A stretch of 26,053 nt of DNA from Anaerolineae bacterium (GTDB taxonomy: Bacteria; Chloroflexota; Anaerolineae; S140-20). The stretch lies in contig JALUTT010000139.1 of the NCBI GenBank assembly GCA_027021705.1, forward strand, positions 1 through 26,053, given 5' to 3'. Shown here piece after piece: positions 1,454 to 21,856 of the stretch. The stretch's first letter is position 1; every line of letters begins with the position of its first letter. The position numbers and the translations under genes were made by a program. The notes under the pieces were generated by a model, which saw nothing but the letters and a program-made list of their open reading frames with translations, had not been told where the DNA came from and did no database searches.

Positions 1454-1514
1454 GGGGTGAGGTACTGAGGGATGAGGTGCTGAGGCACTGAGGGATGAGG
1501 CACTGGGGGCGGGA

Positions 1515-3042: not shown

Positions 3043-3054
3043 CCGGTGCCTCCT

Positions 3055-3226
3055 CCGGTCGGCGGTCGGCCATACAGTCCTCGGTCCTCAGTCCTCAGTC
3101 CTCAGTCCACCGCTACGCCGCTGGCCGCTAGGTCGCTACGCCGCTCGGCCCTCAGTGCCTCGGTCCTCGGTGCCTCAGCCCTCGGCCCGCCGCTACGCCG
3201 CTAACCGCTAACCGGCTAACCGCTAC
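3055..3226. repeat. Composite short-repeat tract (CTCAGTC)n-(CCGCTAGG-like)n-(CTCAGTGC-like)n-(CCGCTAA)n
   Basis: Directly visible 7-8-mer repeats; reverse-complement relative of the tracts at 5497 and 7092. Confidence 0.85.
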
Positions 3227-5496: not shown

Positions 5497-5653
5497 CGGC
5501 ATAGCGGCCTAGCGACTGGCGGCATAGCGACTGGCGGCATAGCGGCTAGCGGCCTAGCGAACTAGCGGCGTAGCGGCGGACTGAGGACCAAGGACCACTC
5601 GACCACCCGACCAAGTGACCAAGCGACCACCCGACCAAGCGGCCACCCGACCA
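5497..5653. repeat. Composite short-repeat tract (TAGCGGCC)n-(GGACTGA)n-(GACCAAGC/GACCACCC)n
   Basis: Directly visible; same block order as the reverse complement of 25430-25553. Confidence 0.85.
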
Positions 5654-5660
5654 CCCCCGG

Positions 5661-5689
5661 TTGCCCCCCGCCCCAAGCCGGGGTATAAT
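5661..5689 (+). promoter_or_regulatory. Putative sigma70 promoter of recF
   Basis: TTGCCC (5661-5666), 17 bp, TATAAT (5684-5689); a perfect -10 in GC-rich DNA. Confidence 0.65.
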
Positions 5690-5714
5690 CCGCCTTGGAG
5701 AACGCGCCGCCTCC

Positions 5715-5840
5715 TCACGCCCCACGCACTACGCGACACGCATCACGCATCACGCATCACGTATCACGCATCACGCATCACGCATCACACATCACACATC
5801 ACGCATCACATATCACGCATCACGTATCACGCACCACGCA
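5715..5840. repeat. Heptamer microsatellite (TCACGCA) x18, degenerate, in the recF leader
   Basis: 18 consecutive 7-bp units ending 6 nt before the recF ATG. Confidence 0.95.
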
Positions 5841-5846
5841 ACCCGT

Positions 5847-7094
5847 ATGTACGTTTCCCACCTGAGTCTCACCAACTTCCGCAACTACAGCCGGCTGGAG
5901 CTGGACCTGCCGCCCGGCCCGGTGCTCCTCTACGGGGCCAACGCCCAGGGGAAGACCAGCCTCCTGGAGGCCATCTTCTACCTGGCCACCTCCCGCTCCC
6001 CCCACACGACGACCGACCGGGAGCTGATCAACTGGCTGGCGGAGGAGGAGCTGCCCCATCCCTACGCCCGGCTGATGGTGGAGCTGGTGCGGGAGCGGGC
6101 GGCGGAGGGCGAGGAGGCACGGCGGCAGCGGATCGAGATCGCCCTGCAGAAGGTGCCCGCCCCGGGCCGGGGCCGGCTGCGCAAGCAGATCCGCGTCAAC
6201 GGCGTTCCCCGCCGGGCGATGGACCTGCTGGGCCACCTCAACGTCGTCCTCTTCCTGCCCCAGGACGTGAACCTGGTGGCCGGCTCGCCCGAAGGCCGCC
6301 GCCGCTACCTGGACATCACCCTCTGCCAGGTGGACCGGGACTACTGCCGCGCCCTGAGCCGCTACAACCACGCCCTCGCCCAGCGCAACGCCCTGCTCCG
6401 CCAGTGGCAGGAGCGCCGGGTGGACCCCGACGAGCTGGCCTACTGGGACGAACTGCTCACCCGCCACGGCGTCGTCATCCTGCTGGGCCGTCAGGCCCTC
6501 ATCGCCGAGCTGAGCCGGCGGGCCGCCCCCATCCACCGGGAACTGACGGGTGGGGCGGAGCGGCTGCGCCTGGACTACCGCCCCAGCTTCTTCCCCCCCC
6601 ACGAGGGCGAGACCGTTCCCGAGACCCCACTGCCCGACACCCCCGAACGGCGGGAGCGCTGGCAGCGGGCCTACCGGGCCGCCCTGGAAGCCCGCCGGGC
6701 CGAGGAGATCGCCCGGGGGGCCACGCTGCTCGGCCCCCACCGGGACGAACTGCGCTTCCTGGTCAACGACACCGTGGACCTGGGCACCTACGGCTCCCGG
6801 GGCCAGCAGCGGACGGCCGTCCTGGCCCTCAAGCTGGCCGAGGTGGAGTGGATGCGGGAGCGGACGGGGGAGTGGCCCGTGCTCCTCCTGGACGAGGTGC
6901 TGGCCGAGTTGGACCCTCAGCGCCGCCGCTACCTCCTCTCCCGGATCAACGGGGCCGGCCAGGTCCTGGTGACCACCTCGGACCCCGCCCTCTTCGACGA
7001 GGCCTTTCTCCGGCGGGCCGCCCGGTTCCGCGTGGAGGGGGGGAGGGTGGTGGCGGAGGGGGAGGCAACGGGGGATGAGGTGACGAGGCACTGA
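5847..7094 (+). CDS. recF: DNA replication and repair protein RecF
   Basis: MYVSHLSLTNFRNY start, Walker A G.NAQGKT, 'GSPEGRRRYLD', 'GPHRDEL', 'GSRGQQRT..LALKLAE', 'PVLLLDEVLAELD'. Start placed at ATG 5847; the ORF-track extension is microsatellite. Confidence 0.97.
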   Translation: MYVSHLSLTNFRNYSRLELDLPPGPVLLYGANAQGKTSLLEAIFYLATSRSPHTTTDRELINWLAEEELPHPYARLMVELVRERAAEGEEARRQRIEIALQKVPAPGRGRLRKQIRVNGVPRRAMDLLGHLNVVLFLPQDVNLVAGSPEGRRRYLDITLCQVDRDYCRALSRYNHALAQRNALLRQWQERRVDPDELAYWDELLTRHGVVILLGRQALIAELSRRAAPIHRELTGGAERLRLDYRPSFFPPHEGETVPETPLPDTPERRERWQRAYRAALEARRAEEIARGATLLGPHRDELRFLVNDTVDLGTYGSRGQQRTAVLALKLAEVEWMRERTGEWPVLLLDEVLAELDPQRRRYLLSRINGAGQVLVTTSDPALFDEAFLRRAARFRVEGGRVVAEGEATGDEVTRH

Positions 7095-7240
7095 GGACTC
7101 TGTACGACCGCCGACCGCCGATCTAGCGGCCTAGCGGCTGGCGGCCTAGCGGCCTAGCGGTGGACCGAGGACTGAGGACCGAGGACTAAGGACTGAGGAC
7201 TGAAGACTGACTGAGGACTGAGGACTGAGGACCGAGGACT
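7092..7240. repeat. Composite short-repeat tract (GACCGCC)n-(CTAGCGGC)n-(GGACTGA)n
   Basis: Fills the interval between recF and the acyl-CoA synthetase gene. Confidence 0.9.
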
Positions 7241-7244
7241 TTCT

Positions 7245-9428
7245 ATGACAGACCTACAGCCATTTTTCACCCCCCGGGGGGTTGCCGTCATTGGGGCCAG
7301 CCGGGACCCTCGGAAGCTGAGCTACGCTGTGCTGCGCGATCTGGTGGAGCACGGCTACCCCGGCCCCGTCTACCCGGTCAACCCCACTGCGACCGCCATC
7401 CGGGGGCTGCGCTGCTACCCTACCGTGCAGGAGGTGCCCGACCCCGTGGACCTGGCGGTCATTATCATCCCCGCCCCCGCCGTGCCGGAGGCGCTGGAGG
7501 GCTGCGGCCGGCGGGGCATCCGGGCCGCCATCGTCATCTCCGGCGGCTTCGGCGAGCTGGGCCCCGAAGGGGAGGCCCTGGAGCGCCGGATCGTCGAGAT
7601 CGCCCGCCGCCACCAAATCCGCCTCATCGGCCCCAACTGCATCGGCGTCATTGACACCATCACCCCCCTGGACACCACCTTCGTCGGGACGATGCCGGTC
7701 CGAGGGACCATCGCCTTCGTCTCCCACTCCGGGGCCATCTGCGGCGGGGTGATTGACGTGGCCTACCGCCAGGGGATCGGCTTCTCCCGCTTCGTCAGCC
7801 TGGGCAACCAGGCCGACGTCAACGAGACGGAGGTGCTGGCCTTCCTCGCCGAGGACCCCCATAGCCGGGTGGTCGCCGCCTACCTGGAGGGGGTGGCCGA
7901 CGGGGGACGCTTCCTGGAGGTGGCCCGGCGGCTGACCGCCCGCAAGCCCTTCGTCGTCCTCAAGGCGGGGCGCACCGGCGGCGGGGTGCGGGCGGCCGCC
8001 TCTCACACGGGAGCGCTGGCCGGCTCCGACCGGGCCTTCGAGGCCGCCTTCCGCAAGGCCGGCGTCCTGCGGGCCGACACCCTGGAGGAGCTGTTGGACT
8101 ACGCCACCGCCCTCGCCTACCAGCCCCCGCCCCGGGGGGAGCGGGTGGCCGTCGTCACCAACGCCGGAGGGCCGGGCATCCTGGCCGTGGACGCCCTGGA
8201 GCGGGCCGGCCTGCGGCTGGCCTCCCTCGCGCCGGAGACCAGCGAACGGCTGGCAGCCCGCCTGCCCCGGGGGGCCAACGTCCACAACCCGGTGGACCTC
8301 CTGGGCGGGGCCTACGCCGACGACTACGCCTTCGCCCTCGACACCGTCCTGGAGGACCCCGGCGTGGACGCTGCGCTGGTCATCCTGGTGCCCCAGGCCC
8401 TCGTCTCGCCGGTGGACGTGGCCAACGCCATCGGCAACGCCGCCGACCGGTCGGAGAAGCCCATCGTCGCTGCCTTCGTCGGGGATGCCAGCACCGAGGC
8501 CGGCGTCCAGGCGATGCACCGACGGCGGGTGCCCGTCTACCCCTTCCCGGAGCGGGCCGCCCGGGCCCTGGCCGCCCTTCGGCTCGATGCCCGGCGTCGG
8601 CAGCCCCGCCGGGAGGAGCGCCTGCCGGAGGCCGACACCGCGCGGGCGGCGGCGGTGATCCGGCAGGCCCAGGCCGCCGGCCAGCGCCACCTCCTGGGGC
8701 CGGAGGCGCGGGCGGTGGTCGAGGCCTACGGGCTGCGCGTGCCCGCCTCCGGCCTGGCCCGAACCGCCGCCGAGGCGGTCGCCCTGGCCCGGCGGATCGG
8801 CTACCCCGTCGCCCTCAAGGTCCACGCCCCCGAGATCTCCCACAAGTCCGACGTGGGCGGCGTCGTCCTGGGGGTGCACGACGAGGCGGGGGTGCGGGCC
8901 GCCTTCGCCGAGATCGTGGACCGGGCGCGGCGCTACGTCCCCGGCACCGAGGTGCTGGGCGTGATGGTCCAGGCGATGGTGCCGGCCGGGCGGGAGGTGA
9001 TCGTCGGGGCCAGCCGGGACCGCCAGTTCGGCCCGCTGGTCGCCTTCGGGCTGGGGGGCCTCTTCGTCGAGGCCCTGGGCGACGTCAGCTTCCGGCTGGC
9101 CCCCGTGAGCCGGGAGGAGGCCCGCGAGATGATCCGGGAGACGCGGGCGGCGCGGGTGCTGGCCGGCATCCGGGGGGAGCCGCCGGCCGACGTCGAGGCC
9201 ATCGTCGAAGCCATCCGTCGCATCGGCCGGCTGGTCCTCGACTTCCCCGCCATCGTCGAACTGGACCTCAACCCCCTCATCGTCGGGGCCGAGGGCGAGG
9301 GGGCCTGGGCGGTGGACGTGCGGATCGTGCTGGAGGGTAATGCATCGCCCTCCCGCAGGTCCAAGGTGCCCGGCGACGGCAACGGCTTACCGGGCAGCAG
9401 CCTACAACACGCTTTAGACCGTGGGTAG
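7245..9428 (+). CDS. Acetate/acyl-CoA ligase (ADP-forming), fused alpha-beta, CoA-binding plus ATP-grasp
   Basis: 'VAVIGAS', 'GPNCIG', 'SHSGA', 'SLGNQAD', 'AASHTGALAG' (phospho-His), 'TNAGGPG', 'HKSDVGGV', 'FGLGG.FVE', 'ELDLNPL'. The last ~30 aa are atypical. Confidence 0.93.
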   Translation: MTDLQPFFTPRGVAVIGASRDPRKLSYAVLRDLVEHGYPGPVYPVNPTATAIRGLRCYPTVQEVPDPVDLAVIIIPAPAVPEALEGCGRRGIRAAIVISGGFGELGPEGEALERRIVEIARRHQIRLIGPNCIGVIDTITPLDTTFVGTMPVRGTIAFVSHSGAICGGVIDVAYRQGIGFSRFVSLGNQADVNETEVLAFLAEDPHSRVVAAYLEGVADGGRFLEVARRLTARKPFVVLKAGRTGGGVRAAASHTGALAGSDRAFEAAFRKAGVLRADTLEELLDYATALAYQPPPRGERVAVVTNAGGPGILAVDALERAGLRLASLAPETSERLAARLPRGANVHNPVDLLGGAYADDYAFALDTVLEDPGVDAALVILVPQALVSPVDVANAIGNAADRSEKPIVAAFVGDASTEAGVQAMHRRRVPVYPFPERAARALAALRLDARRRQPRREERLPEADTARAAAVIRQAQAAGQRHLLGPEARAVVEAYGLRVPASGLARTAAEAVALARRIGYPVALKVHAPEISHKSDVGGVVLGVHDEAGVRAAFAEIVDRARRYVPGTEVLGVMVQAMVPAGREVIVGASRDRQFGPLVAFGLGGLFVEALGDVSFRLAPVSREEAREMIRETRAARVLAGIRGEPPADVEAIVEAIRRIGRLVLDFPAIVELDLNPLIVGAEGEGAWAVDVRIVLEGNASPSRRSKVPGDGNGLPGSSLQHALDRG

Positions 9429-9494
9429 AACCTGCGGGAGGGTTCCCCCCAAGGGTTAGAGCGCCGAAGAGCCCTGGCTGGAGGGCCATCCCCG

Positions 9495-9522
9495 TTGACA
9501 AGGGAGGACTTGCGGATATAAT
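9495..9522 (+). promoter_or_regulatory. Consensus sigma70 promoter upstream of the defence operon
   Basis: TTGACA (9495-9500), 16 bp, TATAAT (9517-9522). SD AGGAGG at 9573-9578 precedes ATG 9589. Confidence 0.85.
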
Positions 9523-9588
9523 CGTGTTAGGCCATCCAGGGAACATATGGTAATATTCCTGTACTTCCCCGCAGGAGGCAGAGCACCT

Positions 9589-12210
9589 ATGGTGTCAAAG
9601 GAACAGCGTTTTTTCGAGGCCCTGCGCGATGTGTTCGTCGGCGCCAAGGTCGAAGGCGAATCGGGCTTCGTCAACCTCATGCGCATCAAGTCCCAGTATT
9701 ACGAGCAGGGCGTCTTCCCGTGCCTGAAAGAGGAGATTGACAAAGCCCTGGGCGACTTCCCCGAATTCCGCGAAGAACTTTTCGACCGCCTCTACAACTT
9801 TTTCAAGCGCTACTTCAGCGAGTCCGGCTCCATCTACTTCCGCTTCACCCCGCCCCACGAGCACGTTTACGAGAAGGTCTACACCGACGACCGGGATGTG
9901 GCCCTCTTCTGGAAGACCCACATGCTCTACTACGTGAAGACCGACCGGCTCTTTCGGAGCATGGTGGTGGAAGTGGACGGCTTTCGGTTCTTCTTCGACG
10001 TCTCCATCCTGGAGCACAAACGGGCTAACGAGAAACGTTCCCTGGTGTATGACTTCAAGGAGCGACGGGAGGACGGCACACTGGCTTTCACGGTGACTTA
10101 CTCGGAGCGCGGAAGGAAGACGAACATTGCCGACATCCGTCGGGCCATCAAGGACGCCCTGGGGCTGAAAAAATACACGGCACAGGTTCCCTCGGAGAAG
10201 ACCTTGGAACGGGCCTTCCGCCTCTTCGAGCGCCAGAGCGAGGTGGACTACTTCATCAACAAGGACGCCCGCAAGTTCCTCCGGGAGCAGTTCAACCTGT
10301 GGCTCTACCAGTATGTGTTTGAACCGGAGGAGCGGCAGGGCACGGTCTGGACCGAGCGGCGTATCCGGCAACTCCAGGTGCTCAAGAAGATCGCCTACAA
10401 GATCGTGGATTTCATCGCCCAGTTCGAGGACGAATTGGTGCGCATCTGGAACAAGCCCAAGTTCGTGCTGGGCAGCCACTATGTGATTACCCTGGATCGC
10501 ATCGCGGCCCAGGAGGGAGGGACGGCGGCGTTGGAGCGTCTGCTGGCCCACCCCGGCATGGCGGACCAGGTGCAGGAGTGGCGCGACCTGGGCATGGTGG
10601 GGGAGGAGTTCACGCCGGAGCAGGTCTGGGTGGAAGACCTGATGGGCAAGCGCCTGCACGAGCGCTACCGGTACCTGCCCCTCGATACCCGGCACTTCCC
10701 CGACCTGGAGATGGTTATCCTCTCCCTCTTCGACCACCTGGACCGAGAACTGGACGGCCGGCTGGTGCACAGCGAGAACTACCAGGCGCTGAAGACGATG
10801 CTGCCAAAGTTTCGGGAGAGGGTGAAATGTATCTATATTGATCCGCCGTATAACACGGGTGAAGATGAGTTCGTCTACAAAGATCGGTTCCGCCACAGTA
10901 GCTGGTTGAGTCTTATTCAAGATAGGCTGGATATAGCGAGAAGCTTCTTTACAAGAGACGGTTCTATATTCATAAGCATAGATGACAATGAAGTACATCA
11001 TCTGGAACTATTATTGCGCGAGCTTTACGACGAAAATAACTTTGTGGCCAACATTGTTTGGCAGAAGCGAACTTCCCCGGACGCCAGGGCTACAATAGGG
11101 GCTGCGCATGATTACTTGGTGGTATTTGCCCGTTCTCTGCCAGAATTTAAAGGCGCACTACGATATCTGCCATTGAGCGAAGAACGTCGCAGGGAGTACA
11201 GAAACCCAGATAATGACCCTAGGGGTCCTTGGGCTTCTCGGGATATTACTGGCCAGGTGGGGCATGCAACTTCTGAACAATTCTACGAGATCGTCACTCC
11301 TGGTGGTGCCAGATATTATCCGCCAAAGGGCCGATGTTGGACGATCTCTCGAGACACTTTCGAGAAACTCGTTGCTGACAATAGGATTTGGTTTGGTAAA
11401 GACGGTAGATCTCGCCCAAGGTTGAAGATTTTTCTATCTGAAGCTGAAGGGATGGCGCCTTGGACATGGTGGACAAACAAGGAAGTGGGTCATAATCAGG
11501 AGGCCACAAAGGAACTGAATGCAGTGCTAGGTTCTGGCCATGGGTATGAAACACCGAAACCGACGCGCCTTATAAAACGGATTCTTGAATTGACAACTCA
11601 ACCGGATCCCGAGAGCATTATCCTCGACTTCTTCGCCGGCTCCGGCACCACGGGCCACGCCGTCATCAACCTGAACCGGGAGGACGGCGGCAGGCGCAAG
11701 TACATCCTGGTGGAGATGGCCGACTACTTCCATACCGTCCTGCTCCCCCGCATCAAGAAGGTGGTCTTCTCGGACAAGTGGCGGGACGGCAAGGCGCAGG
11801 AGGACGGCAAAGGCACCGGCCACTTCGTCAAGTATTTCCGCCTGGAGCAATACGAAGAAGTCCTGCGCAAGGCCCACTACCGGGACGATGACGCGCCCCT
11901 CTTCTTCCAGGACCCCTACACCCAGTACGTCTTTCTGCGCGATCCCAAGATGCTGGACAACGCCGAGACGGGCGAGAAGGTCATGGAAGTGGACATGGAG
12001 GGGGACGAGGTCCGCGTGGATCTGAGCAAACTCTACCCCGACATTGACCTGGCCGAGACCCTCTCCTGCCTCACGGGCAAGTGGATCCGCCGTATCCTCC
12101 CCGCCGAAGACGATCCGACAAAGCCCGGTATGGTGGAATTCGAAGACGGTACCACGGTGGACCTGCAAGACCCGCCGTGGGAGCTGGTGAAGCCGTTGAT
12201 CTGGTGGTAG
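9589..12210 (+). CDS. mod: Type III R-M modification subunit (amino-methyltransferase, beta class) with long N-terminal extension
   Basis: Motif IV 'IYIDPPYNTG' precedes 'TPKPTRLIKRI' and motif I 'ILDFFAGSGTTGHA'. Start moved to ATG 9589 based on the SD. Confidence 0.92.
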   Translation: MVSKEQRFFEALRDVFVGAKVEGESGFVNLMRIKSQYYEQGVFPCLKEEIDKALGDFPEFREELFDRLYNFFKRYFSESGSIYFRFTPPHEHVYEKVYTDDRDVALFWKTHMLYYVKTDRLFRSMVVEVDGFRFFFDVSILEHKRANEKRSLVYDFKERREDGTLAFTVTYSERGRKTNIADIRRAIKDALGLKKYTAQVPSEKTLERAFRLFERQSEVDYFINKDARKFLREQFNLWLYQYVFEPEERQGTVWTERRIRQLQVLKKIAYKIVDFIAQFEDELVRIWNKPKFVLGSHYVITLDRIAAQEGGTAALERLLAHPGMADQVQEWRDLGMVGEEFTPEQVWVEDLMGKRLHERYRYLPLDTRHFPDLEMVILSLFDHLDRELDGRLVHSENYQALKTMLPKFRERVKCIYIDPPYNTGEDEFVYKDRFRHSSWLSLIQDRLDIARSFFTRDGSIFISIDDNEVHHLELLLRELYDENNFVANIVWQKRTSPDARATIGAAHDYLVVFARSLPEFKGALRYLPLSEERRREYRNPDNDPRGPWASRDITGQVGHATSEQFYEIVTPGGARYYPPKGRCWTISRDTFEKLVADNRIWFGKDGRSRPRLKIFLSEAEGMAPWTWWTNKEVGHNQEATKELNAVLGSGHGYETPKPTRLIKRILELTTQPDPESIILDFFAGSGTTGHAVINLNREDGGRRKYILVEMADYFHTVLLPRIKKVVFSDKWRDGKAQEDGKGTGHFVKYFRLEQYEEVLRKAHYRDDDAPLFFQDPYTQYVFLRDPKMLDNAETGEKVMEVDMEGDEVRVDLSKLYPDIDLAETLSCLTGKWIRRILPAEDDPTKPGMVEFEDGTTVDLQDPPWELVKPLIWW

Positions 12211-12223
12211 GGAGGGGAAGAGG

Positions 12224-14965
12224 ATGACTATGGGCTTTGATTGGAGCAAAGCATACCAGGGTGCTCGCTGGGTGCGGGTGGATCTCCATCTCCATTCGCC
12301 GGCCGCGCATTCGTTCAAATTCCCCTCGGGGTTGGACGCCGGCCAGCGGGAAGAGGTGGTGCAGCGGTATGTGGCCCAACTCAAAGCCCAGGGTATCGCC
12401 GTCGCCGCCATCACCGACTACCAGCAAATTCGGCCAGAGTGGTTCTTGCCTATCCGTGATGCGGCCCGGAAAGCGGGGATCTATGTCTTTCCGGGGGTCG
12501 AACTCTCCTTTGGCGGCGGGGTCGGGGGCAAGGGAGGGCTTCACGTTCTGGCGATCTTTCCTTACGATGCGGATGTCGAGAGCATCAATCGCACCATTCA
12601 AGCCATGCTGGACAACGAACCAACGGAGCCACTGCTGCCGCCGGGGCGTGAGCCTCGTGCCTTAAAGCCTAAGGAGTCCCTGAGCGAAAGCCTCAAACAG
12701 TTACGCCCAAAGACAGGGTGTCTGCTCATCTTCCCACATCCTAACGATGACAAGGGCTTGTTCAAAAGTTTTAAGATAGGCCAGGCCGCCGAAATCCTGG
12801 CCGCCACCCGGCCGGAGGCCATCGAAGGACTGAGCGACCGGGATCGAGAGCGGCTGAGTCAGGGGGAGAAACTCCCCCCGGATGTGCTGGCCCGCATCGC
12901 CAGCGTGCACCTCAGCGATAATCACAGCATTCAGGAAATCGGCGCAAAACAACTTCATGGAATGCTCCGTGCCACTTACCTCAAACTCAGCGTTCTGGAC
13001 GATTTGAGAGCCATTTGCCTGGCTCTTCGCGACCACGAAATCCTGGTGCGCCTGGGCGAAAAGCCTGAGCCGGCCCACACGCGGATCGAGGGGGTAGAGA
13101 TAGAGGGAAGCGGATTTCTGGGAGACATGCGCTTGGCCCTGAGCCCCGAACTCAACGTACTCATCGGTGGGCGCGGCGTGGGCAAATCGGCCCTGCTGGA
13201 GGTGCTTCGCTACGGCCTGGACCTTCCCGAGTATTCTCCCACAGAGTATCGAGAAGGGTTGGTACGCTATGCCTTGGGCAGTGGTGGAAAGGTGACGGTT
13301 CACCTGCGCCACGTGGTCAAACCAGGCGTGGAACGCCACTATCGCGTTGAGCGGGTGTGGGGCGAAGAGGCACAGGTGTACGAACTGGATCCTTCCGGCG
13401 AGCATCTGGTGCCCATATCGGTCGCCGACCTTTTGAGCGGTGAAGGGAAACCCCTCTTCTTCGGTCAGCGGGTGCTGTACGATGTGGCCCAATCTCCAAC
13501 ATTGCGCCGGCAATTTCTGGACGACTTGGTAGGACGCGAAGCCCGTCGGAAAGAGCGCGAGATCGAGAAGATTCACCAGGAACTGCGCCGTAATGCCCGT
13601 AGGTCGCTGGAACTGCGGGAGAAACGCACCCGACGCGAAGAGGTAGAGCAACGCCTGCGGGAGATTGAACATGAACTCAAGCTTTTCGAACAACACGGGT
13701 TGGCCGAGAAACTGCGGGAGGAGACCGCACTCACCCGCGATGAGGAGCGGCTGAAACGCACCGAAACCGTTCCCCGAGGATTCAGGGAGGAGTGGCAGGA
13801 GATACAGGTGCGCTGGCAAGAGCGCTTGCAGAGCGCCCTTGCCGACCTTTCCCAAGCCGAAAGCCAGCAGCGAGACCTGCTTACTCAGGACGCCGCGAAA
13901 GTCATTCGTGACTTACAGGATGGACTGAAGGAAGTGTTCCAGAAGGTTGAGGATTTACTCCGGCAGGCAGAAGAGGACCTGCGCAAAGTCCGCCGGCGTT
14001 GGGATGACGGGCGGCGAATGCTGGATGAAGAACTCCGGCGGATCCGGCAGGAACTGGGCACGGAAACATTGGACCCAGACCGCTTGGTGCAACTTGCCCG
14101 GGAGAAAGAGCGGCTGGAGTATGAGCTCAAGATGCTCAGACAGGCAGAGGTGGAGGCGCAAGACCTGGAAAAGGAGCGGAGAGGCCTCCTGCGGAAGCTT
14201 CGCGATACTCGGTGGGAGGCCTTTCGCCTGCGTGAGAAAAGGGCCGAAGAAATTACCGCCCAGATCGGCCGGCGGGTCAAAGTAGAAGTCCTGTACCGGG
14301 GGCAGCGGAAGGAATACGCCAAAAGGCTGGTGGATTTCTTCAGTGGCTCCAGGATTCCGCGAAAGGACCTTGAAAGCGTTGCCAATCGTGAAGAGATGCC
14401 CGACGGCATGGCCTTGGCAGAACTGGTACGGAAGGGGAAAGAGGAATTGAGGGAGAAAACCGGTCTAAGTGAGGCCCAGACACAACGGCTAATGAATTTC
14501 CTCAACCAGGATGAGGTGCGCCTGTATGAAATGGAGCTGCTTTCCCCTGAAGATGATGTGCGGGTATCTCTGAGAGTCAACGACCGGTGGGTTCCTCTGG
14601 AACATCTTTCCGCCGGGCAGAGGGCAACGGCCATGCTGCTCATCTTGCTCACGCAGATCCAGCACCCACTTCTCATTGACCAGCCTGAGGATGACCTGGA
14701 CAATCGTTTCGTTTATGAAGATGTAGTCAAACTGCTGCGTGACCAGAAAGGCGAGCGGCAGATCATTGTCGCCACGCACAATCCCAACATCCCCGTTCTG
14801 GCGCACGGCGAGCTGATTGTCGCCCTCGAAGCCGAAAGCGAGCGTGCCCGCATCAGCGTCCAGGGGGGCATGGATAAACGCAAGGTGCAAAATGAAGTTC
14901 GTCGGGTGATGGAAGGCGGTGATGAAGCCTTCCGACGGCGGGCGGAAAAATACGGCTGGATTTGA
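12224..14965 (+). CDS. PHP phosphoesterase fused to an ABC/SMC-like coiled-coil ATPase (Ppl/TrlF-like defence protein)
   Basis: PHP motifs DLHLHS, AITD, GVEL, H, FPHP, SDNHS. Walker A GGRGVGKS, long coiled coil, signature LSAGQ, Walker B/D-loop LLIDQPEDDLD, H-loop ATHN. Confidence 0.88.
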   Translation: MTMGFDWSKAYQGARWVRVDLHLHSPAAHSFKFPSGLDAGQREEVVQRYVAQLKAQGIAVAAITDYQQIRPEWFLPIRDAARKAGIYVFPGVELSFGGGVGGKGGLHVLAIFPYDADVESINRTIQAMLDNEPTEPLLPPGREPRALKPKESLSESLKQLRPKTGCLLIFPHPNDDKGLFKSFKIGQAAEILAATRPEAIEGLSDRDRERLSQGEKLPPDVLARIASVHLSDNHSIQEIGAKQLHGMLRATYLKLSVLDDLRAICLALRDHEILVRLGEKPEPAHTRIEGVEIEGSGFLGDMRLALSPELNVLIGGRGVGKSALLEVLRYGLDLPEYSPTEYREGLVRYALGSGGKVTVHLRHVVKPGVERHYRVERVWGEEAQVYELDPSGEHLVPISVADLLSGEGKPLFFGQRVLYDVAQSPTLRRQFLDDLVGREARRKEREIEKIHQELRRNARRSLELREKRTRREEVEQRLREIEHELKLFEQHGLAEKLREETALTRDEERLKRTETVPRGFREEWQEIQVRWQERLQSALADLSQAESQQRDLLTQDAAKVIRDLQDGLKEVFQKVEDLLRQAEEDLRKVRRRWDDGRRMLDEELRRIRQELGTETLDPDRLVQLAREKERLEYELKMLRQAEVEAQDLEKERRGLLRKLRDTRWEAFRLREKRAEEITAQIGRRVKVEVLYRGQRKEYAKRLVDFFSGSRIPRKDLESVANREEMPDGMALAELVRKGKEELREKTGLSEAQTQRLMNFLNQDEVRLYEMELLSPEDDVRVSLRVNDRWVPLEHLSAGQRATAMLLILLTQIQHPLLIDQPEDDLDNRFVYEDVVKLLRDQKGERQIIVATHNPNIPVLAHGELIVALEAESERARISVQGGMDKRKVQNEVRRVMEGGDEAFRRRAEKYGWI

Positions 14966-14977
14966 GGAGCATGGGGT

Positions 14978-16135
14978 ATGGAGTGGCTTGAAGTTCAGGA
15001 ACGCATTCTCAGAGGCGAAAATTTGCACACCGAGTTCAAACAGGGGCCCGTTCACCCCGACGACCTGGCAGCCGAGCTGGTGGCCTTTGCCAATACCGAC
15101 GGCGGGTGGCTCATTTTCGGCGTGACGGACGACCGGCAGGTCACTGGCGTGGATGACCCGGACCGGCTTGCTCAGCAGGTGGACAACGTGGCCTACCACA
15201 ATTGCGAGCCACCCCTGACCGTGGTTCAGGAAACGGTGACTCCCCCTGAGGGGAAGACGTTGCTGATCGTTCAGGTACCCAAAGGCGATCAGCGGCCCTA
15301 CCGCACGAATAAAGGGCGGTACTTCATCCGTACAAGTTCGGGTAAACGCGATGCGTCTCCCCGAGAGCTCATGCGATTGTTCCAGGCGGTGGAGACGCAT
15401 TTCTACGAGGAGACGGTTATGCGGCAAGCGAGTGTATCGGATTTAGACCTGGGATCCTTCGAAGAATTTTGTAGACAGGTATTTGGTGAGACCGTGGATG
15501 AGCCACTTGTGTTGCTCGAGAAGTGGAAATTGATCCGGCCGCTGGAAGGGATGCGACATCCCACAGTAGCCGGGCTCCTGCTCTTCGGTCGCGAGCCTCA
15601 GCGTTTCTTGCCCTACGCTTATGTAACGGCTGCACGTATCCCCGGCGAGGATCCTTCGGGAGAGCCATCAGATAGGAAGCGGATTGAGGGCACGCTATTT
15701 CAAATACTGAAAGATACTTCCCGATTTTTGCGGCTCCATCTGCCGGTCTCTCATCAAATCAAGGGGTTTGAACCTGAGGCCCACCCTGAGCTTCCCGAAC
15801 GTGCCCTGCGCGAAGTGGTTGTGAATGCCCTGGTGCATCGAGATTACACACTCTCGGCTCCCATACGGGTATTCGTTTTGGATGATCGGATCGAGATTCG
15901 TAGTCCAGGCACGCTGCCCAACACCGTCACGGTGGACATGGTAAAAGCCGGGATGGCCCATGTATTGCGGAACCCTCAGCTTTACACCTTCTTCCTCAAA
16001 GCAGGCTACGTCACCGACACGGGGAATGGTTTTCGGCGTGTTATTCGGGATGTAAAGCAAGCCATTGGCCGTGAACCGGATATTCGTATTGAAGGTAACG
16101 AATCGGTGGTCTCAATTCCAAGACGTCCTTCTTAA
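14978..16135 (+). CDS. Schlafen/AlbA_2 domain protein with HATPase_c_4-type C-terminal domain
   Basis: 'GENLHTEFK...VAFANTDGGWLIFGVTDD' (AlbA_2/Schlafen) and 'ALREVVVNALVHRDY...EIRSPG...RNPQL...TGNG' (HATPase_c_4). No C-terminal HTH. Confidence 0.88.
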   Translation: MEWLEVQERILRGENLHTEFKQGPVHPDDLAAELVAFANTDGGWLIFGVTDDRQVTGVDDPDRLAQQVDNVAYHNCEPPLTVVQETVTPPEGKTLLIVQVPKGDQRPYRTNKGRYFIRTSSGKRDASPRELMRLFQAVETHFYEETVMRQASVSDLDLGSFEEFCRQVFGETVDEPLVLLEKWKLIRPLEGMRHPTVAGLLLFGREPQRFLPYAYVTAARIPGEDPSGEPSDRKRIEGTLFQILKDTSRFLRLHLPVSHQIKGFEPEAHPELPERALREVVVNALVHRDYTLSAPIRVFVLDDRIEIRSPGTLPNTVTVDMVKAGMAHVLRNPQLYTFFLKAGYVTDTGNGFRRVIRDVKQAIGREPDIRIEGNESVVSIPRRPS

Positions 16136-16155
16136 CCTTCACGCCAGGAGCGCTT

Positions 16156-19131
16156 ATGCGTACCCTCCAAGACATACTCACCGACCTTCCCTTCGCCGAC
16201 CTGCCTCCCGCCTGGCAGGACCACGACCTGGTGGCCTTTTCGCCGACCAAGCGGCTGTGGGACTACCAGCAGGAGGCGCTGCAATACGCCCTCAACGCCC
16301 TCTGGAAGTATTATGAGGACTTCCGGGACTATGCAGAAGGTGAACCGGAGGCGGCCAACGCCGAGCGCAAGGAGCGCCTTTGGGCGTGGTACCGGGACAA
16401 CGGGCTGGAGGCGAATCTAGACATCCCGCTGAAAAAACAAAAACGGGATGTACGCGCCCTGCTGGAGGCGTACTATCCTGCCGAAGACGGCCACATCCCC
16501 TACCGTCACTTGGTCAACCGCATGGGCTTCTGGATGGCCACGGGGAGCGGCAAGAGCTTGGTGCTCATCAAACTCATCGAAGTCCTCTGGCGCCTGATGC
16601 GGCGTGGGGAAATCCCGGCATATCCGGTCTTGGTCCTCACCGCCCGTGACGATCTCCTGGCGCAACTCAAGGCTCATGTAGGAGAATTCAACACAGGCCG
16701 CACCGACTTCCGCATCCACCTGGAAGACCTCAAAGCCTACCCGGAGCGGCGGCGCATGTTCCTCCCCCTGGTGGGCGAGCACGAACTCACCGTCTTCTTC
16801 TACCGGGCCGACAACCTGAGCGTGGAGCAAAAAGAGCGCATCGTTGACTTTCGTAACTATGAGAACAACGGGCGCTGGTACGTGCTCCTGGATGAGGCGC
16901 ACAAAGGGGACCGCGAGGACTCCAAGCGCCAGCACATCTACAGCATCCTATCCCGCCGTGGCTTCCTCTTCAACTTCTCGGCCACTTTCACCGACCCGCG
17001 GGATCTTCTGACCACGGTCTACAACTTTAACCTCTCCGAGTTTGTGCGGGCCGGCTACGGCAAGCACATTGCCATCCTCAAGCAGGAAAACCGTGCGTTT
17101 AAGGACAAGGAGGACTACACGGGGACGGAGAAGCAGCGTGTGGTGCTCAAGGCCCTGCTCATATTGGCCTATGCTCGGAAGGCGCAGGAGACCTCGCCTT
17201 CTGAGCAAAAGACATACCATCGGCCCCTCATGCTCACCCTGGTCAACTCGGTCAATACGAGAGACGCCGACCTGAAGCTCTTCTTCCGCGAACTGAAGCG
17301 CATCGGGCAGGGGCATATAAACGAACAGGTGTGGGAGCAGGCTCGGAAAGAACTGTGGGCGGAGCTGGCCGAGGGCCCCGAATGGCTGTTCGAGGGACAA
17401 CGCTTTCAAGCCGACCAAGCCCTCTTTGACGGCATCACCCAGGAAGAACTGCTCCGTCTGGTCTACAACGCTTCCACTCCCGGCGACATCGAAGTTCTCT
17501 TGCGGCCTTCCAATCGTCAGGAGATGGCCTTCAAACTCAAAAGCGCCGACCAGCCCTTCGCCCTCATCAAGATCGGCGACATTTCGAAATGGCTTAGAGA
17601 GGAACTGGAGGGCTATGAGGTCATCGAAGGCTACGAAGATGAAGGCTTCTTCCGCCGCCTGAACGAGGAAGATTCACCCATCAACATCCTCATGGGCTCC
17701 CGCACCTTCTACGAGGGATGGGACTCCAACCGCCCCAACGTGATCACCTACATCAGCATCGGCACCGGAACCGAAGCGAAGAAATTCATTCTGCAATCGG
17801 TGGGGCGAGGCGTGCGTATCGAGCCCTTACCCGGCAAGCGCCGGCGTTTGCTTTCACTCTACAACGCCGGAGATGTGGATGAGGCCACGTTCCAGGCCCT
17901 GAAGGGCCGGGTTACTGCGCTGGAAACCCTCTTCATCTTCGGTACCAACCGCAACGCGCTGCAAACCGTCATCAAGCAACTGGACCAGGAGAAACGCCGG
18001 GAGGCCGAGCACGAACTGGTGCTTCAGGTGAACGATGACGCAGTGGGAGGACGCCCTTTGCTCATCCCGGTTTACCGGGAGGCCGGGCACCTAATCGTGG
18101 AGAAGCGCGGACCGCGCAAGTTTGAGATCGCTCAAGACGAACTGGAACAACTGAAGCAGTATGTGGACTATCTTGCCGACCCGCGGTTGCTGGTTGTTCG
18201 GCACAACGCCTCACCGCAAGACATTGCTCTGCTCACCCGATGTCTGGAGCATCGGGAGGACTACTTCAACGTCTACAACGGAAGGCGGTACGGACGGCTG
18301 GACATTCTGCTGCCGCGCCTCTTTGCCTACTTCAAGATCATCCCGCAGGAGGCCGATGGCTTGAAGCCTCTGGAAGACGAAATTCGCCACTTCCGGCATA
18401 TTAGGGTGTTCCTGAAGGATATCGGCGATTTGCAGACCAAAATCCGAGGGGTGCAGTCGTACAAGGACCCCGCCGAGGAGCGGAAGCTCTTGATAAAGAG
18501 CCTGCAGCAGATGCAAATCTCCCCGGAGGAGTTCCAGCGGCGCTATGACGAACTGAGCAAGCGGAAGCCTGTGGAGGTGTTCGAACACCGAGGGCAGAAA
18601 TTGCAGATCCGTCACGTAGCTCGCCACTACTACCTTCCCCTGCTCGTTTCAGAACGCGAACGCATTGACTGGATCCGGCATGTGATCCGTCATCCCAGCG
18701 AAGTGCGATTTCTCGAGGATCTGGAGAAGTATCTGGACCAGGAGGGGAACGCCTTCGCCGACCTGGATTGGTGGGCATTTAGCAAGATCGATGAGAGCCT
18801 GGACGAGGTCTACATCCCCTACTACGATCCCCAAAGCAATCGCATCCGTCGGTTCTTGCCGGACTTCATCTTCTGGTTGCAGAAAGGGGACCAATACGCC
18901 GTTGTTTTCGTGGACCCCAAGGGGATGCAGCAAACCGACTACCAGTACAAGGTGGATAGCTACCGGGATCTCTTCCGGGATAAGGCAGGGGGGCTGGAGG
19001 TTTTCCACCACAACGGCCTCATCGCGCGTGTCCACCTGCTGCTGTATACCGATGATGCCAACCGTGCCCCGGCCGGCTATCGTGAGTACTGGTTTGATCG
19101 TCCCGAGGCCATCCCCAAACGGTTGGAGTGA
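16156..19131 (+). CDS. res: Type III R-M restriction subunit (SF2 helicase-like ATPase plus PD-(D/E)xK nuclease)
   Basis: MATGSGKS, LDEAHK, FSAT, EGWD, QSVGRGVR and C-terminal 'FLPDFIFW...FVDPKG'. SD AGGAG upstream. Confidence 0.92.
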   Translation: MRTLQDILTDLPFADLPPAWQDHDLVAFSPTKRLWDYQQEALQYALNALWKYYEDFRDYAEGEPEAANAERKERLWAWYRDNGLEANLDIPLKKQKRDVRALLEAYYPAEDGHIPYRHLVNRMGFWMATGSGKSLVLIKLIEVLWRLMRRGEIPAYPVLVLTARDDLLAQLKAHVGEFNTGRTDFRIHLEDLKAYPERRRMFLPLVGEHELTVFFYRADNLSVEQKERIVDFRNYENNGRWYVLLDEAHKGDREDSKRQHIYSILSRRGFLFNFSATFTDPRDLLTTVYNFNLSEFVRAGYGKHIAILKQENRAFKDKEDYTGTEKQRVVLKALLILAYARKAQETSPSEQKTYHRPLMLTLVNSVNTRDADLKLFFRELKRIGQGHINEQVWEQARKELWAELAEGPEWLFEGQRFQADQALFDGITQEELLRLVYNASTPGDIEVLLRPSNRQEMAFKLKSADQPFALIKIGDISKWLREELEGYEVIEGYEDEGFFRRLNEEDSPINILMGSRTFYEGWDSNRPNVITYISIGTGTEAKKFILQSVGRGVRIEPLPGKRRRLLSLYNAGDVDEATFQALKGRVTALETLFIFGTNRNALQTVIKQLDQEKRREAEHELVLQVNDDAVGGRPLLIPVYREAGHLIVEKRGPRKFEIAQDELEQLKQYVDYLADPRLLVVRHNASPQDIALLTRCLEHREDYFNVYNGRRYGRLDILLPRLFAYFKIIPQEADGLKPLEDEIRHFRHIRVFLKDIGDLQTKIRGVQSYKDPAEERKLLIKSLQQMQISPEEFQRRYDELSKRKPVEVFEHRGQKLQIRHVARHYYLPLLVSERERIDWIRHVIRHPSEVRFLEDLEKYLDQEGNAFADLDWWAFSKIDESLDEVYIPYYDPQSNRIRRFLPDFIFWLQKGDQYAVVFVDPKGMQQTDYQYKVDSYRDLFRDKAGGLEVFHHNGLIARVHLLLYTDDANRAPAGYREYWFDRPEAIPKRLE

Positions 19132-19133
19132 TG

Positions 19134-19217
19134 GCCTAACACCCGCTCCAGTCGCCCCGCTCCCCTTGGCTGCTCCGCTCCCTGGCTTTATGGCGCGGCC
19201 GAAGTTCATCGGTAGGA
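19134..19217 (+). other. Degenerate attC-like recombination site (84 bp)
   Basis: R'' GCCTAAC lies 2 nt after the res stop, then a 5-nt spacer, arm CTCCAGTCGCCCC, a central region, arm GGCGCGGCCGAAG, a 6-nt spacer and R' GGTAGGA (non-consensus). The arms pair at 9/13 positions, or 11/13 with G-T pairs on the bottom strand. Top strand is C-rich. Confidence 0.55.
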
Positions 19218-19253
19218 TCGTGTCCGTGAGTGAAATGAGAAAGGAGAGCCCTG

Positions 19254-20573
19254 ATGCCGGAAACTGCGTGGCCTTATCCCCTCATCGAGCGTGGCAGCAA
19301 GGTCGGCGTCCACGCCATTCGCTCCAACCGGGTCACCGAGTTCGCCCGGGCGCTGGCCGCTGGCGGTGCTGCCTTCCCCGTCGTCAAGGCGGTGGACGAC
19401 CTGGGGTGGCTGCCCCAGATCAAGGCGATCAGCCCCCGGACGGTGATCGTCGCCCGGCAGACCTCCCGCTACGAGGGCTGCGAGCGGGTGGGCGACCCCT
19501 CGACCGACCTGGATGAGATGGCCGACAACTTGGTCGGCGTCATCCTGGAGAAACTGCAGAGGCACCCCGATCTGCGGGACGTGGTGGACTACTGGGAGAT
19601 CTCCAACGAGCCCGACCCGCCGGGGGCCGAGGGATACCGGCGCTTGGCCCTGCTGATGATCAAGTGCATGGAGCGGGCCGAGGCGGAGGGGCTGAAGCTG
19701 GGCCTCTTCGGCCTCAACGCCGGGACGCCCGAATGGCCGGAGATCGAGGCGATGGTGGAGACGGGTGTCTTCGGACGCGCCCGCCGGGGCGGGCACATCT
19801 TGACGCTGCACGAGGGCGTCTTCGGCAACGTGCCCATTGACCGGTGGTGGGGCGACCTGATCCCCGGCGCGCCCCGGGTCGAGGGGGCCGGAGCCCTCTG
19901 CTTCCGCTACCGCTACCTCTACCACCTGCTCCGGCAGCGGGGCGAGGTGATCCCCCTGGTCGTCAGTGAGTTCTACGCCGGCGGTGGCTACGCCCAGGAC
20001 GGCGTCGCGCCGGAGGCGATCGTGGAACGGATGGCCTGGTACGACGAGAAGGCGCGGCAGGACTACTGGGTCCTGGCCTTCTGCCCCTTCACCCTGGGAC
20101 CGGTGGGGCAGTGGGTGAACACCGACTACGAGTTCGTCTACCCGGCGCTGGTGGACTACATGCTCACGGTGAAGGAGAAGCCCAACGGGCAGCCCGAGGC
20201 GGTGGCCCCGACGCCGACGCCGGAGGAGCCGCCGGCCGAGGAGCCCGAGGAGGAGCCCCAGGAGAGCCCCCGGCGAGGAGCCCCGCGCGTCCAGTACCGG
20301 CGCACCTACGTCCTGCTGCCGCCCGATGCCGACAGCACCTGGGCGCGGGCCGTGGTGGAGGCGACCTGGGATGAGCGCCGCTTCACCGTGGGGAGCAGTG
20401 CCGACGACGCGGGCATCGGCGACCTGGACGACCGGACGGTGATCGCCGTCAACCCCTCCCGCTGGCCGACGGACCTGAAAACCTTCTTCGACACCTACTA
20501 TCCGGGAGTGCGCTACATCCCCGTGGAGGCCGCCACGCCGGCCCAACTGGTCAGCCGGCTGCGGGCTTTGTAG
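19254..20573 (+). CDS. Hypothetical protein with clan GH-A-like TIM-barrel motifs, an acidic Pro/Glu linker and a small C-terminal domain
   Basis: 'YWEISNEP' and 'LVVSEF' resemble the GH-A acid/base and nucleophile motifs. SD AAGGAG upstream; host-like codon usage; no signal peptide. Confidence 0.7.
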   Translation: MPETAWPYPLIERGSKVGVHAIRSNRVTEFARALAAGGAAFPVVKAVDDLGWLPQIKAISPRTVIVARQTSRYEGCERVGDPSTDLDEMADNLVGVILEKLQRHPDLRDVVDYWEISNEPDPPGAEGYRRLALLMIKCMERAEAEGLKLGLFGLNAGTPEWPEIEAMVETGVFGRARRGGHILTLHEGVFGNVPIDRWWGDLIPGAPRVEGAGALCFRYRYLYHLLRQRGEVIPLVVSEFYAGGGYAQDGVAPEAIVERMAWYDEKARQDYWVLAFCPFTLGPVGQWVNTDYEFVYPALVDYMLTVKEKPNGQPEAVAPTPTPEEPPAEEPEEEPQESPRRGAPRVQYRRTYVLLPPDADSTWARAVVEATWDERRFTVGSSADDAGIGDLDDRTVIAVNPSRWPTDLKTFFDTYYPGVRYIPVEAATPAQLVSRLRAL

Positions 20574-21802
20574 CACCGGCCTGAAGCGCCGATGCTGGGA
20601 GGGGGGTACGAAGCCGGCGCCGTCGGTTCACGGCGATGCGTGGCACGACGCGCTGACCGAGGACGTGGGGGGCTATCCAGCTTTTTCCCTTGCCCCTGGT
20701 GTCCTTGGTGTCCTTCGTGGGCTTTGTGGTAGGCGGCACCGGCCTGAAGCGCCGGTGCTGGGGGAGGTACGAAGCCGGCGCCGTCGGTTCACGGCGATGC
20801 GCGAGACGACGCGCTGACCGAGGACGTGGAAGGCCATCCGGCTTTTTTCCCTGCCCTTGGTGTCCTTGGTGTCCTGCGTGGGCTTTGTGGTAGGCGGCAC
20901 CGGCCTGAAGCGCCGATGCTGGGAGGGGGGTACGAAGCCGGCGCCGTCGGTTCACGGCGATGCGTGGCACGACGCGCTGACCGAGGACATGGGGGGCTAT
21001 CCAGCTTTTTCCCTTGCCCCTGGTGTCCTTGGTGTCCTTCGTGGGCTTTGTGGTAGGCGGCACCGGCCTGAAGCGCCGGTGCTGGGGGGGTGGAAGGCTG
21101 TCCGGCTTTTTCCCCTGCCCTTGGTGTCCTTGGTGTCCTTCGTGGGCTTTGTGGTAGGCGGCACCGGCCTGAAGCGCCGGTGCTGGGGGGATACGCGCCC
21201 AGCGCCGTCGGGTTCACGGCGGCGTGCGGGCACGACGCGCTGACCGAGGACGTGGCAGGCCATCCGGCTTTTTTCCCTGCCCTTGGTGTCCTTGGTGTCC
21301 TGCGTGGGCTTTGTGGTAGGCGGCACCGGCCTGAAGCGCCGGTGCTGGGAGGTACGAAGCCGGCGCCGTCGGTTCACGGCGATGCGCGAGACGACGCGCT
21401 GACCGAGGACGTGGAAGGCCATCCAGCTTTTTTCCTGCCCTTCGTGTCCTTGGTGTCCTGCGTGGGCTTTGTGGTAGGCGGCACCGGCCTGAAGCGCCGG
21501 TGCTGGGGGGATACGCGCCCAGCGCCGTCGGGTTCACGGCGGCGTGCGGCACGACGCGCTGACCGAGGACGTGGCAGGCCATCCAGCTTTTTCCCCTACC
21601 CTTGGTGTCCTTGGTGTGCTTCGTGGGCTTTGTGGTAGGCCGCACCGGCCTGAAGCGCCGGTGCTGGGGGAGGTACGAAGCCGGCGCTGTTGGTTCACGG
21701 CGGCGTGCGGCACGACGCGCTGACCGAGGACGTGGAAGGCTATCGGGCTTTTTCCCCTGCCCTTGGTGTCCTTGGTGTCCTTCGTGGGCTTTGTGGTAGG
21801 CC
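20573..21802. repeat. Non-coding tandem array of eight ~161-bp palindrome-containing (REP/BIME-like) units
   Basis: GCACCGGC-CTGAAGC-GCCG(G/A)TGC hairpin at 20573, 20736, 20897, 21060, 21161, 21323, 21481 and 21642. The fourth unit is only 101 bp. Confidence 0.95.
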
Positions 21803-21856
21803 ACGGCGGCGCGCGCCTCCGCGTCTCTGCGTTTCAGCGATTCCAGGTTAGAAGCT

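Follow-up and report, generated by a model that had tools for sequence, protein, structure and literature searches.

A 9.7 kb type III restriction-modification operon in an Anaerolineae genome may be a single, now immobilised integron cassette

In the parts of Cury et al. (2016, PMC4889954) that deal with attC sites lacking an integrase, integration at secondary sites is named among their origins. Defence systems carried by integrons are characterised, in the sections of Darracq et al. (10.1101/2024.07.02.601686) drawn on here, as streamlined systems that 'never exceed 2 components', long cassettes recombining poorly; long loci are absent there, and type II and type IV restriction systems prevail. 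The same passages, together with excerpts of a further study (10.64898/2026.03.17.712381), attribute the small size of these systems to poor recombination of long cassettes, and in the latter excerpts a cassette with attC sites 4 kb apart could not be recovered. The portion of Kieffer et al. (10.1101/2024.07.02.601719) considered here includes a defence system that lies outside an integron and whose pseudo-attC is mismatched at the point of crossover. We analysed contig JALUTT010000139.1 (C139) of assembly GCA_027021705.1, a stretch of 26,053 nucleotides (the window) from an uncultured hot-vent Chloroflexota bacterium of the class Anaerolineae, which carries a four-gene, 9.7 kb anti-phage operon. 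We propose, at a probability of roughly 0.55, that positions 9527/9528-19216 are a single, now immobilised integron cassette made up of a short leader, four defence genes and, at the 3' end, an attC of the clade's own family. The proposal draws on the observed boundaries, attC homology, complementary ends, empty site, gene content and integrons of the clade; in it, the integrase IntI would have made the insertion and all 9.7 kb would have moved in one step.

Like the lone-attC or secondary-site cassettes and the attC-site clusters without an integrase (CALIN) of Cury et al. (2016, PMC4889954), the island consists of open reading frames (ORFs) followed by an attC with an RYYYAAC box, and its TTRRRY start is complementary to its own R''. 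It further resembles them in having an outside promoter and none of its own, a GTT target, no integrase nearby and an attC family common to the arrays of its genome, and differs from them in its decayed attC and in the 7-bp target repeat at its junctions. With the integron defence cassettes of Kieffer et al. (BRiCs) and of Darracq et al. (sedentary chromosomal integrons), as they appear in the excerpts used, it shares an anti-phage system in cassette form, whereas its cargo is a type III restriction-modification (R-M) system plus a two-gene module, with four proteins of 385-991 aa.

The boundaries of the island were characterised by repeat and composition. A first-pass annotation, made by a model from the sequence alone, had described an exact 13-bp inverted pair around the operon, and this was confirmed: GTGTTAGGCCATC at 9524-9536 is the exact reverse complement of GATGGCCTAACAC at 19130-19142, the TGA stop codon of res (19129-19131) runs into the right arm, and the 13-mer occurs at these two positions only in the 5,190,633-bp assembly. 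A 13-bp inverted match between the two intergenic regions bordering the operon was reached in 1 of 2000 shuffles. The annotation had also noted lower guanine-plus-cytosine (GC) content than in the flanks and no internal attC, both of which held. GC was 0.577 in 9528-19133 compared to 0.729 (5600-9339) and 0.695 (19254-23000) in the flanks, with sharp steps (a fall at ~9500 and a climb at 19100-19300), and no attC was found inside 9528-19133, where the best plus-strand match to the clade covariance model described below reached at most 9.4 bits. The island GC lies within the range of this genome's cassettes (0.39-0.60; genome, 0.66). The unit is compact, with a 62-nt leader, a res stop codon that overlaps the attC stem and a promoter outside the unit.

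The ends were then compared with those of cassettes in arrays, where the bases that follow G|TT as a cassette begins complement those at and before its own R''. In this genome the matches were 11 nt (C22a, 659 nt upstream), 10 nt (C83b, 577 nt upstream), 8 nt and 7 nt, and in the arrays of relatives they were 11 (G017), 7, 6, 6, 6, 4, 3 and 1 nt. Fourteen further attCs in relatives yielded in-register matches of 12, 11, 11, 10 and 10 nt; two of the fourteen had no match of at least 8 nt, and one had a 10-nt match off-register, so chance end matches do occur inside arrays. The island carries a match of 10 nt (TTAGGCCATC), 9608 nt upstream, with a TTRRRY start; the expected number of occurrences of this 10-mer in the 19 kb upstream is 0.006-0.009, and it occurs five times in 10.4 Mb. 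Its extension (CATC/GATG) differs from the common GGC/GCC of the family. Circularising 9527-19211 in silico rebuilt the 11-bp outer stem that had been predicted and turned R' into GTTAGGC. The R'' box is set ~78 nt in from the right end, and the left junction falls within R', a geometry that is a cassette layout and not that of transposon terminal repeats. A transposon with terminal inverted repeats was considered and rejected: relative to the empty site described below, the junction falls within the left arm and the right arm is set ~75-80 nt into the insert, and the window has no transposase gene.

To place the 3' site, the assembly was scanned for complementary RYYYAAC...GTTRRRY pairs with stable hairpins, and canonical attCs were found on other contigs. 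In sites of this family, GCCTAAC is followed by a 4-5 nt spacer, an L'' arm carrying two bulged bases and a loop; an L' arm and a 6-nt spacer then lead to GTTAGGC. In the window, the R'' box GCCTAAC fits the RYYYAAC inverse core and begins 2 nt past the res stop codon, and the first 30 nt of the site are near-identical to the attCs of contig C22. A nhmmer profile built from three attCs of this genome matched 19134-19216 over its full length (E 0.0058 genome-wide, rank 5 of 20). We also used a clade-specific covariance model (R1) built from six other sites with the window site excluded. R1 scored the window site at 22.9 bits on the plus strand (E 1.9e-4 within the window and 0.038 across the genome), the best of 73 matches in the window, the next reaching 16.2 bits; genome-wide it ranked 10th of 14, below the six training sites and three independent ones. 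With a sequence-only hidden Markov model (HMM), the native site scored 17.8 bits and the reconstituted site 20.5 bits. Extrahelical bases of attC sites sit on the '' arm, and the window site retains two bulge positions on that arm. Its central loop is longer than that of the family, and its L' arm carries mutations and lacks 2 nt. The R' form GTTAGGA is present at C22c and C126, one change away from the GGTAGGA of the window. Taken together, these similarities suggest that the 3' site is a real but decayed member of the attC family found in this genome and its relatives. The possibility that the attC 3' arm derives from the promoter module as a copy was also examined and discarded, the similarity being non-significant (score 14 vs shuffle mean 12.1).

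Integrons are present in the clade. Arrays of the CALIN type were found on contigs C22 and C83, with attCs 0.6-0.7 kb apart and small, low-GC, co-oriented ORFs between them (HD, SET, DUF3368, SdpI). Families of miniature inverted-repeat transposable elements (MITEs) are common to C139 and the attC-bearing contigs, so these contigs belong to one genome. The search of the genome returned these arrays and, of intI, only a remnant (C176:3706-4017; L009 1450-1815), seen as two TIGR02249 pieces with 148.7 bits compared to 73.7 for XerC. The remnant keeps profile positions 90-152 and 272-313, the middle and N-terminus being gone, and lies just upstream of the prolyl-tRNA synthetase gene with no attC nearby. 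Among relatives, intI above the cut-off occurred in 17 of 40 genomes and the R1 attC family in 15 of 40; of another 150 genomes in the class, 29 carried the family (E <=1e-7). Contig C7 of relative G007 holds a complete integron, with a divergent intI and three attCs of the R1 family. Elsewhere in the host genome, a lone, well-folded attC of 86 nt (z -5.3) directly follows a ~2.5-kb low-GC stretch (C36:33058-35658; L033 3058-5658) with ORFs of 266 aa and 608 aa, the latter with a Golvesin_C domain; no complementary start for it was found within 20 kb.

The largest clean cassette in the relatives was found in G017 (C136; L057 4445-8753, minus strand), where 4239 bp lie between two strong attCs (55.5 and 71 bits). 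Its overlapping genes encode a DruA/DUF4338-like protein (387 aa), a NurA-like protein (384 aa) and a HerA-like protein (591 aa); its GC is 0.51, 11 nt of its start match its own R'' extension, and no internal attC was found in it at E <=0.05 with filters off. Multi-gene defence cassettes well above 2 kb thus exist in the clade, and this one exceeds in size those of the literature excerpts used here. This cassette resembles the island in attC family, multi-gene defence-like cargo, low GC and complementary start, and differs in lying in an array between intact attCs, in being half the size and in having an attC that is not decayed. The starts upstream of the 14 further attCs in relatives lay only 0.2-2.5 kb away, with no giant cassette among them.

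An empty site was provided by a 1413-bp contig of the same metagenome (L041), from a strain ~4-5% diverged. On this contig the upstream acetyl-CoA synthetase gene is represented by its 3' end, alongside MITEs, a ParE toxin-antitoxin pair and another copy of the promoter module. Positions 1139-1184 of L041 are identical over 46 of 46 nt to 9483-9528 of the window and there abut the 5' untranslated region of orf439: the promoter is followed by ATCGTG|TTGAGTAAGAGAAAGGAG and then directly by the ATG of orf439, the site reading TATAATCGTG|TTGAGT up to that ATG. Because the promoter of L041 directly precedes orf439, it once served this gene, and the operon was inserted between them. The comparison sets the left breakpoint at the G|TT of GTTGAGT, which fits GTTRRRY; secondary integration sites follow a GWT/GTT rule. 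An alignment of L041:1177-1184 can be made at either junction (9521-9528 and 19217-19224), L041:1177-1413 is 95.1% identical to 19217-19459, and a 7-bp direct repeat of the target, ATCGTGT, stands on each side of the insert 9528-19216. The empty site upheld the left end first placed at 9527; at the right, the insert runs to 19216 rather than 19211. Features are listed in Table 1.

Table 1. Coordinates of the island, its junctions and the resident promoter and gene (window positions).
Feature	Position	Strand	Evidence and remarks
Resident sigma-70 consensus promoter, TTGACA-16-TATAAT	9495-9522	+	12/12 hexamer matches; just outside the insert
Left copy of direct repeat ATCGTGT (target)	9521-9527	+	Putative IntI crossover G|TT between 9526 and 9527
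Left arm of 13-bp inverted repeat	9524-9536	+	9527-9536 (TTAGGCCATC) read as the cassette's R' remainder, complementary to GATGGCCTAA at 19130-19139
5' leader	9537-9588	+	Ribosome-binding site AGGAGG at ~9575-9580, read from sequence
mod, type III DNA methyltransferase	9589-12210	+	PADLOC MTase_III 790 bits over 3-873; Pfam N6_N4_Mtase 1.5e-36
TrlF-family, Ppl-like AAA/SMC-type ATPase	12224-14965	+	NCBIfam NF045780 475.5 bits (cut-off 350); PADLOC Ppl 8e-40
Schlafen/AlbA_2 + HATPase_c_4 protein	14978-16135	+	Pfam PF04326 1.3e-23, PF13749 4.1e-17; ATPase partner
res, type III restriction helicase-nuclease subunit	16156-19131	+	Pfam ResIII 1.7e-13; PADLOC REase_III 4e-26, 89 bits
Probable decayed attC	19134-19217	+	R'' GCCTAAC 19134-19140; R' GGTAGGA 19211-19217; 5' arm keeps family sequence
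Right copy of direct repeat ATCGTGT	19217-19223	+	From here colinear with the sister strain's promoter-orf439 spacer
orf439, resident gene, 439 aa	19254-20573	+	No match in Pfam, NCBIfam or PADLOC

The proposed course of events is as follows. The circular form would have carried an attC with an extended R''/R' stem (GATGGCCTAAC / GTTAGGCCATC), and IntI supplied in trans would have recombined this circle at G|TT within a core-like site, which the sister strain has as GTTGAGT, 4 nt past the -10 box of the resident consensus promoter. Because the insertion lies directly behind that promoter, the cassette would be expressed from it, and orf439 would have been pushed 9.7 kb downstream and cut off from it. 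Later the site would have decayed, with R' changing from GTT to GGT, the L' arm mutating and the loop expanding, and the genome would have lost intI; with intI lost and the site decayed, the cassette would therefore be trapped. On this account, GGTAGGATCGTGT / GTAGGATCGTGTCCG and the attC-like stretch are taken as not resident before the operon.

Public data, in the form of assembled contigs of four runs with joints as listed, were used to examine the population. In the probable source run, contigs bridge both junctions. In two runs of another study, the island is ~99.8% identical (for instance, 2 differences in 1331 and 1 in 864), compared to 98-99% for the flanks (25 differences in 1405), and contigs continue across the right junction from 19166; the island is thus less diverged between strains than the flanks. 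In a hot-spring run (X4), the flanks are ~93-95% identical and the depth of the island is almost nil, and the site is bridged by 0 contigs.

Several results weigh against the cassette proposal. The claim of an attC-like palindrome after res, although sustained by a full-length family match on the right strand, fails for the inner stem: 14 of 21 model pairs are kept in the native site and 7 of 21 are non-canonical (5 of 21 once reconstituted), 5 of 14 L-stem pairs are lost, including through the 2-nt deletion, a stable hairpin is not formed, and the native R' GGTAGGA breaks the conserved GTT of the GTTRRRY core, in keeping with the caveat already raised that the right junction is G|GT rather than G|TT. 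On folding of the bottom strand, the native site reached -0.12 kcal/mol/nt (z +1.5), no better than shuffled sequence, compared to -0.24 to -0.43 kcal/mol/nt (z -1.6 to -7.1) for well-kept sites and z -0.1 to -1.0 for three weak sites; the reconstituted site gave z +0.15, changing to -1.6 with a 4-bp extension and to -2.8 when the full 13-bp stem was allowed. No intI above the curated cut-off was found in the 94.9%-complete genome, and the 26-kb contig holds no other attC and no intI, as the annotation had cautioned for the latter, so the site is not part of an array. The ends of homologous loci (three full-length res loci, L043-L045, and the trlF-slfn locus of Tectomicrobia, L029) gave 0 R1 matches. 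Among the joints listed in the four runs, which are uninformative on rare circles, none skips from 9526 to 19212 and none joins 19211 back to 9527. The 13-bp inverted pair is not rare as such, block-shuffled windows holding ~27 k-mer pairs of this type each, and the island is ~5 times the size of the largest cassettes cited in the portion of Cury et al. (2016, PMC4889954) considered here.

The right junction adds to these points. IntI exchanges the bottom strand only, with resolution by replication, and a 7-bp target repeat is not predicted by a simple single-strand insertion of this kind; CATCG|TTGAGT was expected at the right and CATCG|GTAGGATCGTGTCCGTGAGT was found, which is not a simple reciprocal of the left. 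Possibly the circle already had GGTAGGATCGTG|TTAGGCC and the crossover took place at this second core, which would explain the 13-bp stem; the junction may also have been remodelled after insertion, or the recombination may not have been the work of IntI. Overall, the suggestion that the whole system was one IntI substrate is upheld in large part, though not in full: it is favoured by the attC family, the complementary ends and the left G|TT junction and opposed by the decayed site, the 7-bp repeat and the lack of an array or intI. All 9.7 kb may have moved in one event.

Entry without IntI is the best-surviving alternative, and we regard it as unlikely. An ordinary tyrosine integrase would have recombined conservatively at the shared 7-bp core ATCGTGT, or homology-facilitated illegitimate recombination following DNA uptake would have used the promoter module as anchor and the 7 bp as microhomology, the attC-like stretch being cargo or a remnant. 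An exact 7-bp direct repeat of the target is a hallmark of a shared core or of microhomology joining, the locus is a hotspot, with the ParE pair of L041 between duplicated MITE-plus-promoter modules, and the lower divergence of the island than of the flanks is compatible with recombinational exchange. Such entry, however, leaves unexplained both the 10 nt complementary to the R'' region 9.6 kb off (the 13-mer being reached in 1 of 2000 shuffles) and a correctly oriented attC homologue abutting the last stop codon; in addition, the island neither contains nor adjoins an integrase gene, and inverted core-type arms around ATCGTGT are absent. The form of the junction (CATCG|TTAGGCCATC vs the GGTAGGATCGTGTTAGGCC type) would separate an IntI crossover from recombination at the 7-bp core.

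The promoter locus itself was inspected further. In L041 300-1185, a ParE-type pair (382-597 and 597-866) lies between two copies of the MITE-plus-promoter module, the first junction there reads TATAATCGGTG|TCAGGC, like the island's left junction through AGGC, and 12 nt separate the end of the MITE from the -35 box that follows. The locus is an insertion hotspot. When the promoter module was compared with attI, the attI regions of two relatives were found to have TATAATC 4-5 nt before |TTAGGC, the alignments being non-significant (0.04-0.11 of shuffles reach the score). The promoter 20-mer with up to 3 mismatches occurs in 72 of 400 other genomes of the class, so it is promoter-like in general.

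The four ORFs of the operon are all full length and co-oriented, with intergenic gaps of 13, 12 and 20 nt; a longer ORF for mod begins at 9547. Residues 1-988 of the 991 of Res align to a Chloroflexota homologue, and Mod and a Res helicase-nuclease occur together in one operon, which identifies a type III R-M system. As in EcoP15I-like type III systems, there is a whole-length MTase_III match and a ResIII helicase domain, with mod first and res last; the difference lies in the genes for the TrlF/Ppl-like ATPase and the Schlafen-AlbA_2 protein between them. Ppl is presumably a PHP-domain protein, and a literature search on TrlF turned up only spectroscopy papers. In 400 other genomes of the phylum, all three full-length res homologues belong to plain mod-res pairs without trlF or slfn, and an adjacent ATPase-Schlafen pair with 64-66% amino-acid identity was found in a Tectomicrobia genome (L029 9977-13877). 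Since the homologous mod-res pairs are plain and the ATPase-Schlafen pair recurs elsewhere, the operon is a type III R-M system with an embedded two-gene module, and the ATPase and Schlafen/AlbA_2 protein form a conserved gene pair in different defence contexts. The Tectomicrobia pair has DUF499, RadC and UvrD-PD-(D/E)XK nuclease genes as neighbours, and its ATPase reads as two overlapping ORFs.

This gene content bears on an alternative that we consider rather improbable, in which a true cassette was smaller when mobile (a two-gene mod-res unit of ~5.7 kb, or a still smaller one) and grew in place, for example by a 3.9-kb trlF-slfn insertion, so that IntI never moved 9.7 kb. The direct adjacency of mod and res in 3 of 3 phylum homologues, the occurrence of the trlF-slfn pair alone in another defence context (L029) and the 4.2-kb maximum of clean cassettes in relatives fit such growth, while the tight gene gaps and uniform GC, the borders between mod and trlF and between slfn and res, at which no repeat or scar was noticed, and the other-study strains, which carry the whole island at ~99.8% identity, do not. 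Because of that identity, any growth in place predates the split of the strains. A chance coincidence of inverted repeat and attC-like score beside an ordinary horizontally acquired island is very improbable, given that independent signals coincide (a unique 13-mer, 1 in 2000 shuffles, and an attC of full length on the right strand at the stop codon) and that the G|TT breakpoint was set by an independent contig, even though 13-bp inverted pairs are common in GC-rich DNA, the covariance-model E-value is 0.038 at genome scale and the window site does not fold.

Other features of the window were recorded. A ~105-nt hairpin repeat at 9345-9449 (to 9477), with a 13-bp perfect stem (9348-9360 / 9430-9442), takes the place of the acetyl-CoA synthetase ORF's natural 3' end and is absent at this spot in L041; it has 177 blast matches in the genome and forms head-to-tail arrays with a ~108-nt period on contigs C71, C50, C133, C162, C2 and C68. 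A short repeat family occupies the spacers before the acetyl-CoA synthetase gene (7100-7240 and 5531-5595), where contig depth exceeds 1000 and the public runs show many local joints; a joint from 7201 to 19239 in run X3, with 10 letters between, has its short side in this repeat-rich spacer and was not relied on. A second low-GC patch at 1500-3000 (0.57-0.59 vs ~0.72) contains ORFs at 1495-1962 and 2557-3204 with no match in Pfam, NCBIfam or PADLOC. Downstream of orf439, a stretch of ~480 bp occurs twice (20573-21058 / 21323-21801; 89% identical), and similar pieces are found on C25 and in relatives. A search of the window with Rfam at gathering thresholds and a tRNA scan gave no match.

It is conceivable, and we advance it tentatively, that Anaerolineae integrons mobilise whole multi-gene defence operons as single cassettes, of 4.2 kb in a relative's intact array and 9.7 kb here. 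A 9.7 kb operon with cassette ends, alongside a three-gene cassette of 4.2 kb, would stretch the size limit several-fold, and both large units come from a phylum whose integrons have hardly been studied. If this is true, the limit of 1-2 kb and one or two genes, which derives chiefly from Vibrio and clinical integrons, is not general. The same limit is embedded in the 4-kb clustering rule of detection software, and attC searches that cluster within 4 kb or discard single sites would miss such units. The case would illustrate a route from cassette to fixed, expressed island, by landing behind a strong promoter followed by decay of attC and intI, and defence islands would then have an overlooked origin in giant cassettes caught at GTT sites close to promoters.

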